A DNA stretch of 64,000 nucleotides from Octopus vulgaris (lineage: Eukaryota): NCBI GenBank assembly GCA_951406725.2, contig OX597836.1:8556001-8620000 (forward strand), read 5' to 3'. The notes beneath the pieces were generated by a model. It saw only the letters and a program-made list of their open reading frames with translations, had not been told where the DNA came from and searched no databases. Position 1 is the first letter of the stretch. Each line of letters begins with the position of its first letter. Shown here one piece after another: positions 19,812 to 61,825 of the stretch. The position numbers and the translations under genes were made by a program.

Positions 19812-19851
19812 GATATCTGAAGAAGGAATTTTTATTCCGAAATATTATATC
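19812..19851 (+). ncRNA. Minimal type-I hammerhead ribozyme motif
   Basis: GAUAU-CUGAAGA-A-GGAAU(UUUU)AUUCC-GAAA-UA-U-U/AUAUC. Stems I and II are perfect 5-bp helices, the core is intact and stem III is the palindrome AUAU. Lies in a ~260-bp insert (19686-19943) between (TA)n tracts. Confidence 0.8.
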
Positions 19852-21169
19852 AGACTTTGGATGATTAAATTACAACAGTTATTATAGCACATTGTTTGTA
19901 TTAGAGTGCATTGTTGTGTTATTCAAAATATTTTATTCTTTACTATATAAATAATATATATATATATATATATATATATCTATAAATATGCATTTAGGCT
20001 TAGCATCTCTTCCTGTTTGTTTTCACTGTCCAAATTTTGTTACCAATTTTGACCCTCCGCAAAATCCCAAATTTTAAAACAAATTTGCTTTGCGGGAGCA
20101 ACTGTTTTATCGAAAGCGTATCTTGTTGTGAATTGCTCGAAATACGAGAGTAGAAAAACAGCCAGCAACTGATGAAGGGTCGTTTTTTTTGTTGTCTGTC
20201 TTGTTTTCCATGTGTTCGTCCTTCCTATTTTTTGTTGTACACGTCTCGTGACATCCTGTGCCTACATATGCATATATATATATATATACACGTATAGGTG
20301 TAAGTATGTACGTATGTACATATACGTACGTATATATGCATATATATATTATTTATATTATTATATGACTGAACCCCACGCATCCTCTTTCAAGTGTTTA
20401 TCTAAGTTTTCTATCTATCTATCTATCTATCTATCTATCTATCTATCTATCTATCTATCTATCTATATATACATATACGTATATATACGTATATATATAT
20501 ATATATATATATATATATATATATATATATATATATATATATATTTATATATATATACATACATAACATACATATATGTATATATACATACTATACATAT
20601 ATATTATCGACCACACATAACGTACACGCCAATAGCGTTTGCCGGTAGGATATGAAATGGCGTGGTGGAGATGACTCCCTCAGTGTGCCGGGTGTTAAAA
20701 TGCCTGAAGGTAAAGCACATGCAGGACGTGTGCGTGTATGACTGTGCATGTGTGTGTATGTATTTTTGTGTGTGTGACGATGTTGGTTCGTTTACGTCCC
20801 CGTTACCTAACGGTTCGGCGAAAGGGGACCCATAAAATAAGTACTAAACTTTAAAAAAGACCAAATTAGTATTGGAGTTGATTCGTTCGAATGAATCCGC
20901 CAAGGCGGTGCTCCAGCATGATCGCAATCCAATGACTGAAACGAAATAAAGACAAACGATTAACGATAAGGTTGACTTAAGATTAAACAACCACAAGAAC
21001 AGGAACAAACTAACACAAAGGGTTGTAAAGTGGTAGTAAAAGAGTTGAAGGTTCGAGTTGGGATTGGGTCGAAGGACGTTATTGTTGAAGGCGATGGTGG
21101 TGAAGATCCAAAGACGTTCCAGCCTTGGCCATCTAGAATTTTTATACAAACAGGAACATATATTATCCA

Positions 21170-21930
21170 GGTTGTTGTTGTTGTTGTTGGTGGTGGTGGT
21201 GGTGTTAGTAGCGTTAGAAATGTTCGTAGTGTTGGTTGTGGTGATTGTAACTTTGATGGTGGTGGTAGAGGTGTTTTGTGGTGGTTGTGTTGCCCTTAGA
21301 GGTGATGGTGATGGTGTTAGTGTGGTGGTAGAGCTGCTGATGGTTGTGGTGATGATGTTAATGGTGGCGATGGTGGTGATGGTGGTGTTGGTGTTGGTGG
21401 CGGGGACGGTAGTGGTGCTAGTGGTAGTGGTGAAGTTAATGGTGATGGTAGCGATGGTGGTGGTGTTGCTGGTGGTGATGGTAGTGGTGATGTTGGTGGT
21501 AGTGATGGTGGTGATGGTGGTGTTGGTGTTGGTGTTGGTGGCGGGGACGGTAATGGTGCTGGTGGTAGTGGTGAAGTTAATGGTGATGGTAGCGATGGTG
21601 GTGGTGCTGCTGCTGGTGGTGATGGTAGAGGTGATAGTGGTGGTAGTGATGGTAGCGGTGGAGGCGGCGGTAAGTGGTGATGGCAGTAATGATGGTGATA
21701 ATGGTTGTTGCTGTGGCGGTTTTGGTAGTGATAGTGATGGTGGTGGTGGTGGTGGTGGTGGTAGTGGTTGCAGCGGCGGCGTTGCCGGTGGTGGCAGTGG
21801 TTGTAGTGTTGGTAGAAGTGACGGTGATAATGGTTGCTGTGGTGCTGGAGGTACTGGTAGTGGCGGTGGTGGTAGTGGTAGTGGTGGTGGTGGTGGTAGC
21901 GGCTGTGGCTGTGATGGTGGCACAGGCGGT
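21170..21930. repeat. (GGT)-rich low-complexity tract with internal ~140-bp-period duplication
   Basis: GGCGGGGACGGT..GTGAAGTTAATGGTGATGGTAGCGATGG occurs at ~21400 and ~21540. Confidence 0.9.
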
Positions 21931-23319
21931 TTGTTTGCTGCTGTTGTCTGGCAAAACAAATCTATAATGCAGATTGTGCTAACAGCAGATTCGACAGAAA
22001 ACTCTGTAGAAATGGCGAGATCAAAGCGACGGAATAACGGAAGAGGACCACACAGCTTAAACACTGTTTAACTTAGTTATAACAATGGCCATTGTATAAA
22101 AGTCGATACACACACACACGCACACACACACACACGCACACACACACACACACATATATAAACACATACATACACACACACAACATGAAAATACTCTCAC
22201 AAATACCTTATACATATATACCTACATGAACATACATATATATATATATATATATATATATATATACACACATACATATATATATATTCATAAATGTGTA
22301 TGCACGCGCACGCACACACACACACTCATATATATATATATATATATATATATATATATATATATATATATATATATATATATATGTGTATGTATATATA
22401 CATATACTTGCATGTATATATTTGTGAATACACATACACATATATGTGTACATGTCCATATACAGAAGTGTATTAATTATACATTTCGTCTTCACTCAAT
22501 GCACACACATACGCACACGCAGATACACACACATATATACATAGCGTACTGACATATACATATATATATACACATATATATATACAAATATATATATACA
22601 CATATATGTACATACGCATATATATATACATATATGCACATATACATACATACATGCATACACACACCCCACACCAACCTACACCAACCCACACCTACCC
22701 ACACAATCCCTCCACACATATATACTGATATACATATTCCCATACAGACACATAAATGCGTTTTCACTTACATGCATACATAAAAACATGCATACATAAA
22801 TATATACACACACAAGAACATACATACACACACATATACATACATACATACATACATACACATACATATATACATGCATACATATATACATACATACATA
22901 CATGCATACATACATAGATACATACATACATAAATACATACATACATACATACATACATACATACATACATGCGTGCATACATATACGTATGTGGAGTCG
23001 AAGTCAGCCAGGTTTGCATAAGGGGCCTATTCATGTTTCTCTTTTTCTTTTCGTCTTATGAATTCTGCCCCCTTAAATTTTTGCCATTAATGCAATCCTG
23101 GTAAATAGAAAAAGAAGAAAAAAAAAAAGAAAAAATACAAAAAAAAAAGAAAAGAAAAAAAAGAAGCTTTCTATCTCTCTTCTTTTTGATAAATGCAATG
23201 GAGCGCCGTTTTAGGGGAAAATGGCAATTACAGTAATAATGAAACTTTAGAATTAAACTAGTAAATTATAAGTTAGTTATCCAGCATAAACTAACAGATC
23301 GCAACTACAAGAGGTCGAC

Positions 23320-59313: not shown

Positions 59314-59597
59314 GAAATAACAATCATATCTCTCTCCAATCGAAGTTGAGGACAACCATATTTTTGCCCGTGGACCCCTTCAGTCTCCTACTTTATACAA
59401 CTGTATTTTTATAATTAAATATTATTTGGAACTGCACGAAAAAGTCTAAATATTTTGGGTATTGTAGAAGTATTAGTGAGAAGTATAAGAAAGAAACAAG
59501 GAGACACAGAAAAACACCCCAGAGATACCCGTAAAGCGTTCTGATGAATGCTTCAAGTTGAACTAAAGAACGTACCACGTTTCACTTGCAAAGTTGA

Positions 59598-59990
59598 TAC
59601 CTATTTCTTTACTACCCACAAGGGGCTAAACACATAGAGGGAACAAACAAGGACAGCAGACAAAGGAATTAAGTCGATTACATCGACCGGAGTGCGTAAC
59701 CGGTACTTAATTTATCGACCCCGAAAGGATGAATAGCAAAGTCGACCTCGGCGGAATTTGAACTCAGAACGTAACGGCAGACGAAATACCTATTTCTTTA
59801 CTACCCACAAGGGGCTAAACACACAGAGGACAAACAAGGACAGACAAATGGATTAAGTCGATTATATTGACCCCAAAAGGATGAAAGGCAAAGTCGACCT
59901 CGGCGGAATTTGAACTCAGAACGTAACGGCAGACGAAATACGGCAACGCATTTCGCCCGGCGTGCTAACGATTCTGCCAGCTCGTCGCCT
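59598..59990 (-). mobile_element. SINE family A, head plus tandem body repeat
   Basis: Reverse complement of family A with a tail-to-body junction at ~59790. Confidence 0.9.
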
Positions 59991-61637
59991 TAATATCATT
60001 GCAAAGTTGATATCATTAACGAAATATGAAAAAAACAACTTCTCTCCGCCATTTTCATCTCTACTTAACTTCACATTACGCACACACACACACACACACA
60101 CACACACACACACACACACACACTCCCACATTCTCTCACACTCCCACATTCTCTCACACTCCCACATTCAACCCTTTGTTTTACTGTTTGATTTTTGTTG
60201 TTTATTATTGTTTCGTTTTTTAATCTTGTTCTTGTTGATGTTGTGAATTTGTTGCGGTTATGTTAATGGCTGAGTATTTCGCTGCTAAAATTTGTATTAG
60301 TCTTTTTCTTCTTTTTTTTTATTGTTTACATTTTTTTTTTACTTTAAGATTGTCTCCTTGTTTATCGTCTCCTCCACACCTCCAATACCATCAAATACCA
60401 CCACCACTATCCCCACCAGATCAATTGCAACCACCACCACCACCACCACCATCATCACCACCATCACCACCAACACTAACACCACCACCACCACCACCAC
60501 CACCACCACTACCACCACCACTACCACCACCACCACCACCACCACAATCACCACAGCCGCTGCCGCCGCCGCCGACAGCCAGAGCAACAACAACAACAAC
60601 AACAAATGTGGAAGCCTCTACGTAGTCGTTAAAATCTACTTGAAATAGTTCTCAAACCACCCTCAAATCACCCGCTACCGTCTTAAAAAAAATAAAAATT
60701 CCCAAAATAGCACTCATCGCCGAAATCTATCTTCGTTGCGCTTTTTTTTTTGTTTTCCCTATAAATATTTCCACGGTCATTGCTCCGATGGACTTTCTGC
60801 CCCAGAACCCTCTGTTAAAACCTTTCACTTCACCCCCCACCCGTCGTCTTCCCTGGGACATCGTTTCTCTGTTGGGCTTCCATAAGTTCTTTAATTCTAA
60901 TGGCTTCTTTCGTCCAACTGCTGCTCTCTCGAACACTCAATCGTTCGTTGTTTCCGTCGTTAGACTGTGGTCATGCTGGGGCACTTTCAGGAAAGATTTT
61001 ACAAACGATCCCAGTAATTTTTTCTTTAACGTCTCCTACTTACTCAATCGGATCCTTATACCGAACCGCTGTGTTACGGGGATGTAAACACATCAACACC
61101 GATTGCCAACAATAACAACAGCAACAATGACAGTAACAACAGCAACAATGACAGTAACAACAACAACAATATTTATATTCGTGTAACATCTGAGGATAGA
61201 AAGCTTCGAATAACCTGTCCTTGTTTTTTTGTATCGTCTATCCGGATGTTTTGTTGTCCTTTTTGTATCACCTAGTTGTCCGGACGTTCTGCGTTCTTGT
61301 CTCAATTTGTATTTTACACACACACACACACATATTCATATATATATGTATATATATATGTATATACATATATATATATATATATATATTATATATATAT
61401 ATATATATATATATATATATATATATATATATATATATATATATGTATATATATATGTATATATATATGTATATATATATATATATATATATATATATGT
61501 ATGTATATATTATTATTAATAATAATAATAATAATAATAATAATAATAATAATAATAATAATGATAATGATAATAATAGTATGAATGAATGAATGAGACC
61601 TCGATATTATGTAAAATAGAGGAATTTATCTATAAAT

Positions 61638-61825
61638 ATAATATGTGAATTAGTTGGTTGTCACAAAACTCAGAGCTTCGGATGCCGGGGCTGAAGTCTG
61701 CTCCGGCATCTCATCAGATTTTAAGACTTTGTCTTAATAACTGATGAGATGCCGGAGCAGACTTCAGCCAAGGCACCCGAAACTCTGAGTTTTATTTTGA
61801 CAACCGACTAATTGTCACATATTAT
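61638..61825. repeat. ~190-bp imperfect palindrome made of two back-to-back hammerhead-bearing arms
   Basis: 61638-61717 is the reverse complement of 61741-61825; the centre TTAAGAC-TTT-GTCTTAA is also self-complementary. Confidence 0.9.
61736..61796 (+). ncRNA. Type-I hammerhead motif (plus arm of the inverted pair)
   Basis: AAUAA-CUGAUGA-GAUGCC..GGCACC-C-GAAA-CUCUGAG-U-U/UUAUU. Perfect 5-bp stem I, near-palindromic stem III. The minus-arm copy has a perfect 8-bp stem II but GAAG instead of GAAA. Confidence 0.72.

Follow-up and report, generated by a model that had tools for sequence, protein, structure and literature searches.

Minimal type I hammerhead ribozymes (min-HHRs) of metazoan Penelope-like elements (PLEs) were described by Cervera and de la Pena in 2014 (PMC4209133), where they occur largely as truncated solitary copies and as many consensus families per genome; monomers of these published motifs showed no activity and dimers were weakly active (PMC4209133), and the role of the hammerhead in endonuclease-bearing PLEs has been stated to be unclear (10.1101/2021.04.23.441226). 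Metazoan retrozymes without long terminal repeats (non-LTR retrozymes; PMC7229834) have been argued to be non-autonomous PLE derivatives (10.64898/2026.07.22.740005), and the schistosome repeats Sm-alpha and Sj-alpha resemble short interspersed elements (SINEs) in which a polymerase III-type promoter is followed by a hammerhead (reviewed in PMC6765202). The giant squid genome paper gives 235 hammerhead-1 matches. Here we analyze hammerhead motifs within a 64,000-nucleotide stretch of the Octopus vulgaris genome (assembly GCA_951406725.2, contig OX597836.1, positions 8,556,001 to 8,620,000, forward strand; hereafter the window), and in copies of their host repeats elsewhere in the genome. The motifs are very probably minimal type I folds within PLE 3' terminal repeats, five families being tail stubs of coding elements and two being units without an open reading frame (ORF) that resemble retrozymes. 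The motif community as such is known biology, i.e., the expected debris of several PLEs plus two retrozyme-like parasites; the less expected part is the lineages with a changed ribozyme core, above all one with U in place of A at core position 6 (A6U) whose fold still appears constrained.

Results

Hammerhead motifs and their excess over chance

An initial annotation of the window had placed eight motifs, starting at 19812, 31147, 49978, 50425, 58030 and 61736 on the plus strand, at 24593 on the minus strand, and at a minus-strand partner of 61736. All eight sit where they had been placed, with stems and palindromes as described, and their hosts fall into seven families, designated A (19812), B (24593), C (31147), D (49978), E (the 61736 pair), F (50425) and G (58030). 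A palindromic stem III is present in all seven. Four copies (19812, 24593, 50425 and 58030) carry the extra A that had been noted after the CUGANGA box, and six of the seven hosts contact (TA)n, in line with the earlier statement that most do. Using a type I hammerhead descriptor with palindromic stem III, we obtained three strict and six relaxed matches in the window, whereas none of 40 shuffles that kept dinucleotides within 200-nt blocks gave any, confirming the excess over shuffled sequence; when one core mismatch was allowed there were four window matches (50425 being added) versus a mean of 0.07 over 15 shuffles.

The earlier description of paired stems is accurate for four of the motifs (19812, 24593, 50425 and 58030), where stems I and II are clean, but the other four are imperfect. 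Stem II of 31147 has decayed and the motif contains a 19-bp duplication; at 49978 the first stem II pair is U opposed to U; in 61736, stem II shows two mismatches relative to its own family; and its minus partner has A15.1G and a stem I broken beside the core. The single core substitutions reported for 50425 and for the minus partner are both present, although that of 50425, the sole defect of this motif, is family-wide and not damage to one copy. The CUGANGA and GAAA boxes, the UH site and paired stems I and II form the family majority in A, C, E and G, and are found together in four window copies; in family D the core is intact, with the first stem II pair unformed. As the annotation held, the motifs belong to the minimal type I hammerheads known from PLEs and retrozymes, spread over many unrelated families; they are predicted to self-cleave. 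Folding energies of the monomers were uninformative (z of +1.1 to -3.0 relative to shuffles, most being no more stable than shuffled sequence). An Rfam scan of the window returned no hammerhead family among the best 150 of 730 matches, which were microsatellite-driven microRNA matches, and a scan restricted to 57890-58140 returned neither a hammerhead nor a tRNA match.

The motifs share with the published min-HHRs (PMC4209133) the type I topology, a short stem I, an unpaired base between A9 and 10.1, a G10.1-C11.1 pair and a palindromic stem III, and in both cases most copies are solitary and attributed to truncated PLEs, with opposite-strand pairs 100-700 bp apart. The core variant described in that paper is U3-A8, whereas the family-wide variants seen here are A6U and U4C; the sections of its text drawn on here name no cephalopod.

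Copy number and genomic density

The seven families are dispersed and high-copy, each giving more than 1000 search candidates with the motif at a fixed family position. An unselected sample of 600 kb, taken from fixed round positions of the genome, contained 11 canonical and four variant motifs versus 0-1 and 0-2, respectively, in 12 shuffles. Enlarged to 800 kb, the sample held 18 descriptor-intact motifs, of which seven came from a single array, and the window families were represented by 29 copies (F 10, G 10, B 6, E 2, D-like 1, A 0, C 0). The density of one motif per 8 kb in the annotation thus describes this window only; the unselected 800 kb gave about one per 28 kb, roughly threefold sparser. 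Extrapolation to the 2.8-Gb genome, with a wide sampling error, suggests about 100,000 copies for the seven families, as against the 2,000-9,000 copies per genome given in PMC4209133.

Coding PLEs upstream of families A, B, E, F and G

Upstream ORFs were traced by walking into longer genomic copies. Five of the seven families (A, B, E, F and G) extend upstream into PLE reverse transcriptase (RT) or GIY-YIG endonuclease coding sequence, contrary to the proposal that the families are non-autonomous; of the "at least five" such families that had been counted, only C and D are ORF-less. The window copies of A, B, E, F and G are, to judge from these longer copies, 5'-truncated stubs of PLE 3' ends. 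In the coding families the hammerhead lies 80-170 nt from a fixed 3' end, and the 5' ends are ragged.

Family A is represented by a 5'-truncated 3' end at 19696..19943 (plus strand), with a canonical-core hammerhead at 19812-19851; H17 is U in this copy and C in 19 of 25 family copies. Two longer copies (L033 and L046) continue into a GIY-YIG ORF, and in six of the 12 best protein loci, one of which is the query, the hammerhead is found 330-356 nt past that ORF. The GIY-YIG match has an E value of 8e-6, above the Pfam cutoff, and RT-like motifs were seen by eye in a further locus (L285). The family G copy at 57982..58130 (plus strand), with a canonical minimal hammerhead at 58030-58075, appears to be the 3' end of a Penelope/Poseidon-type PLE: among 25 copies that contain the ORF end, 22 reach a tRNA-like head and 14 reach the hammerhead, and the upstream sequence encodes RVT_1 (E 6e-8, above the cutoff) with a DKG motif and, by alignment, a linker-less GIY-YIG domain.

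Families B and F, both ending in (TA)n, are putative 3' ends of Neptune-type PLEs. The B copy occupies 24505..24700 on the minus strand (hammerhead 24627-24593); four of 30 long copies reach a CX4CxxC linker and GIY-YIG domain (E 3e-4) across an approximately 2-kb CA-rich untranslated region (UTR), and the sequence recovered stops short of the RT. The F copy occupies 50362..50552 on the plus strand, with the A6U hammerhead at 50425-50462. An endonuclease of the CX2-5CxxC-linker type was found in 11 of 30 upstream-selected loci, nine of which then have the U6 hammerhead and several of which have RT; the RT and GIY-YIG domains lie in one frame, both below the Pfam cutoff (E 0.002 and 0.005). Family E (61725..61826, plus strand; hammerhead 61736-61796) is a candidate for the 3' terminus of a PLE whose endonuclease carries a Hydra-type signature. 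Its consensus hammerhead has 11 of 12 stem I bp paired and a bulged stem II, and in the window it is joined head-to-head to an inverted second arm (61590..61724, minus strand) bearing a damaged hammerhead whose core begins at 61717. The ORF end in L139 (inverted in L140), recognized as endonuclease by alignment, has CxCX5C and the GIY-YIG Y..Y.G..R pattern, without the core cysteines; the nearest atlas clusters include GIY-YIG ones at 0.94-0.95 (40% and 17% of members).

By the motifs quoted for each clade, and not by an RT tree, B and F appear to be Neptune-type, G Penelope/Poseidon-type and E Hydra-type; A is unassigned. In terms of the clades of Craig et al. 2021 (10.1101/2021.04.23.441226), families B and F resemble Neptune in their TA targets and CX2-5CxxC linker; G shares with Penelope/Poseidon the DKG motif, the missing linker and the lack of TA bias; E shares with Hydra CxCX5C, the absence of two core cysteines and the TA association. 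Departures from these described clades are the reduced linker of A and the tRNA-like segment in the 3' UTR of G. The endonucleases are of at least three types, 10-57% identical to the first sequence in the alignment. The annotation had proposed a search for autonomous RT plus GIY-YIG elements with the same ends; broken copies linked such coding sequence to A, B, E, F and G (RT in A, F and G), and none was linked to C or D among the loci compared.

A separate PLE outside the window families (L241-L282; e.g., G000:C25:4968001-4978000) is young, abundant and autonomous, with 24,827 search candidates, a (TA)n end and an 811-aa frame for RT and endonuclease that is preceded by an overlapping frame. 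Its 3' UTR holds a hammerhead-like motif, seen by eye, whose core is U3-A8, whose stem II is 2 bp long and whose palindrome spans 6 nt. This PLE was rejected as the coding source of the window families, with which it has no hammerhead in common; it is a possible helper for TA-inserting retrozymes.

Retrozyme-like families C and D

Families C and D each consist of an ORF-less unit with one hammerhead per unit and head-to-tail repeats. The C copy (31054..31238, plus strand) is a piece of an approximately 290-bp, circularly permuted unit whose end continues into its own start at four of 25 loci; its decayed hammerhead lies at 31147-31185 on the same strand, with the 19-bp duplication at 31165-31205. 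The D copy (49662..50320, plus strand) is a young element between (TA)n runs, comprising one 560-bp unit and an approximately 96-bp terminal repeat, with the hammerhead at 49978-50029 and a predicted cut after 50025. Elsewhere as many as five 560-bp D units, 99-100% identical, stand in tandem; the 3' ends of D are fixed, the 5' ends are ragged, and inversions occur. A tandem partner is present in 17 of 25 loci, some of which overlap. The longest ATG-initiated ORF on the ribozyme strand is 29 aa. The U.U at 10.1-11.1 (the first stem II pair) is present in all 25 loci; contigs from four other sequencing runs include D relatives, and loose contig ends among them suggest forms with A-U at 10.1-11.1 and a compensated stem I, which, being on separate contigs, provide a hint only.

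Families C and D are likely to be retrozyme-like units copied by Penelope enzymes. Like metazoan retrozymes (PMC7229834; 10.64898/2026.07.22.740005) they are ORF-less, have one type I hammerhead per unit, form partial tandems or arrays and reside in a PLE-rich genome; they differ in having a minimal PLE-type motif with an 8-nt palindrome and, for D, the U.U at the base of stem II.

Two other retrozyme-like repeats were seen outside the window. One (L158:4700-6000) has D-related ends and the same 8-nt palindrome with another stem I and a long stem II, and occurs both inverted and in tandem. The other (L156:2300-4520) is a further retrozyme family, an array of seven 359-bp units of which five are forward and two inverted; every unit has a well-formed hammerhead whose stem I measures 6 bp, stem II 4 bp and palindrome 6 nt.

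Core-variant lineages

Of 79 family F copies, 74 have U at position 6, as do nine of the 10 copies from the unselected sample, and nine U6 copies are linked to coding sequence. Among 71 family B copies, C occupies position 4 in 47 (five of six in the unselected sample) and T in 23; the U4C copies form a subfamily of low divergence with linked diagnostic sites. The window copy at 24593 has a canonical core and is mixed as to the diagnostic sites. That its core arose by CpG decay of U4C was considered and set aside: T4 was found 23 times versus once for the mirror change G5A, and T is linked to diagnostic sites.

Constraint on the F motif was assessed with 69 U6 copies binned by flank divergence, leaving out CpG transitions, copies gapped in stem II and A6 copies. 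In the 14 copies with flanks at least 10% diverged, the 28 core and stem positions differed by 4.5% (17/377) compared to 19.8% (310/1562) for the flanks, and the two positions that a hammerhead leaves free, N7 and H17, differed by 48% (11/23). H17 is G in only two of 79 family F copies. Detection favors intact motifs and the copies share ancestry, so that significance is overstated, with N7 and H17 serving as an internal control. Because core and stems are conserved while N7 and H17 vary within the same motif, the comparison points to selection on the family F hammerhead fold after A6U was fixed. Compensatory stem I pairs distinguish related families (B versus F, and E versus L391, a family outside the window).

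The A6U (F) and U4C (B) families are two of the three most abundant, and in the youngest family the basal pair of stem II is a fixed mismatch; for this reason a dependence of transposition on efficient cleavage is doubtful. Further hammerhead families were seen outside the window (L391; L199 and L395; L207 and L277; L194; L362); one of these is E-like and has a compensatory change in a stem I pair, and another occurs with U4 as well as with C4.

The tRNA-like head of family G

The 72-nt head of family G has an A box at positions 8-18 and a B box at 53-62, which is tRNA spacing. In the window it occupies 57906..57977 on the plus strand, with each box changed, and is preceded by an inverted 3'-tail copy (57875..57905, minus strand), a PLE-type inversion recognized by matching against family tails. 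ARAGORN found no tRNA gene in 15 family G loci and Rfam gave no tRNA match for the best family G head, so the term "tRNA-like" rests on the A and B boxes. Five of seven unselected G heads start within -11 to +1 of the head, and none of 28 in G-selected loci reaches more than 13 nt upstream. Since their starts fall at one place and not at random, the short G copies are probably a derived SINE-like subfamily and not plain truncations. Family G as a SINE only was dropped, as L204 and L038 show coding sequence upstream.

The short G copies resemble Sm-alpha and Sj-alpha (PMC6765202) in having polymerase III-type promoter boxes followed by a hammerhead within a short, abundant repeat. Unlike in the schistosome repeats, the head and hammerhead of G also make up the 3' UTR of a coding PLE of this genome, and 16 of 30 G copies lie in head-to-head inversions as opposed to direct tandems. 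In a separate sample of loci (L173-L215), one apparently intact tRNA gene was present among seven A/B-box matches, the others resembling SINE heads.

Target sites and inversions

Runs of at least five (TA) follow the 3' end in 15 (A), 23 (B), 13 (C), 14 (D), 16 (E) and 21 (F) of 25 loci each, against a background of 6-16%; the A and D counts are non-independent because seven of the A loci derive from a single duplicated segment and several of the D loci overlap one another. Family G had such runs at only two of 30 loci. TA targeting had been proposed for the whole set; a strong TA association holds for six families but not for G, and this split between families agrees with the published hypothesis of targeting by a zinc-finger-like linker (10.1101/2021.04.23.441226). 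An inverted partner was found within 800 nt at 16 of 30 G loci and, of 25 loci each, at eight (E), seven (D) and four (A); head-to-head examples in the window are the 61736 pair and the inverted tail ahead of 58030.

Discussion

The arrangement can be explained by known PLE biology. The GIY-YIG endonuclease would nick the target and the RT would copy the RNA from its 3' end, usually dropping off after 150-300 nt and leaving tail stubs; (TA)n would be preferred by elements in which a zinc-finger-like linker precedes the endonuclease. The hammerhead would be the part most often fixed and over-represented because it lies 80-170 nt from the 3' end, within the short stubs. In tandem transcripts, two motifs are predicted to pair via the stem III palindrome and to cut slowly, yielding unit RNAs or circles, while lone stubs would be inactive and left to decay. 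Cutting probably helps without being essential, because the A6U and U4C lineages reached tens of thousands of copies.

Several results weigh against this explanation. None of the copies recovered for A, B, E, F or G is both intact and full-length, the ORF links being drawn from broken copies; the E link rests on two to three loci whose ORF end gave no relevant Pfam match; and no coding PLE sharing sequence with C or D was present among the loci compared. Inverted partners were absent from B, C and F (0 of 25 loci each). The SINE-like behavior of the short G copies also does not fit simple truncation. RNAcofold minimum-energy dimers of six motifs gave none of the textbook form (stems I and II within a motif, stem III between motifs), and because cofolding did not return that dimer as the lowest-energy state, dimer action here is argued by analogy; both cleavage as a dimer and transcription of the motifs are predictions.

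Of the other explanations, the one that survives best is that the motif in F and B is a dead relic merely carried along, which we consider unlikely, if deserving of some weight. Changes of A6 are expected to break hydrogen bonds of the core and natural A6C is slow, and U4C has lower activity in vitro (PMC3088659); furthermore, Naiad PLEs spread without a canonical hammerhead (10.1101/2021.04.23.441226), and eight of nine vertebrate retrozyme dimers were uncleaved in vitro (bioRxiv 2026.07.22.740005). However, a relic would not be expected to show the low core and stem divergence of the diverged U6 copies beside freely varying N7 and H17, and a viroid with U4C stays infectious, as cited in PMC3088659.

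The explanation offered by the initial annotation, that non-autonomous families share one TA-targeting helper and require self-cleavage, is improbable. In its favor, the majority of genomic copies are short and have no ORF, TA association holds for six families, the units of C and D are non-coding, and short G copies behave like a SINE. But five families have their own upstream RT or endonuclease of different types, which contradicts a single helper for A, B, E, F and G; the difference among endonucleases and the absence of TA association in G argue against one system; and lineages with A6U or U4C rank with the most abundant ones. The single-helper, non-autonomous model could hold for C and D. 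Lastly, an origin of the motifs by chance in low-complexity, repetitive DNA, as the unremarkable monomer folds and the absence of a hammerhead among the Rfam matches listed might suggest, is refuted by the shuffle and family tests (0 matches in 40 shuffles, fixed family positions, compensatory stem I pairs).

With the motifs taken as PLE-derived folds, we tentatively propose, as a reading with nearly as much for it as against it, that a Neptune-type PLE lineage of about 35,000 copies kept its hammerhead fold under selection after A6U, either as a working core variant or as a recognition signal for the RT rather than as a cutter, and that a Penelope element spawned a SINE from a tRNA-like promoter in its own terminal repeat. 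In the literature listings searched we found no octopus PLE hammerheads, PLE-borne SINE or natural A6U lineage; variant surveys and supplements may include such cases. The fold may do more than cut, given an A6U family that keeps the rest of it. This genome offers a natural comparison set, i.e., successful related lineages with canonical, U4C and A6U cores, each tied to a coding element, in which "needed as cutter" and "needed as shape" would become separable by cleavage and binding assays. More generally, short hammerhead repeats are often truncated ends of coding elements.

Other repeats within the window

Several TA-flanked repeats in the window have a CUGANGA box and do not follow the type I order: an inverted pair at 54740-55250 (cores at 54873, minus strand, and 55156, plus strand), and plus-strand repeats at 61190 and 20169, the latter with its GAAA box ahead of the CUGAUGA box. 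Tandem copies of a common short interspersed repeat, with periods of 184-436 bp, are present at 764-1138, 9000-9366, 15367-16082 and 27368-28400.

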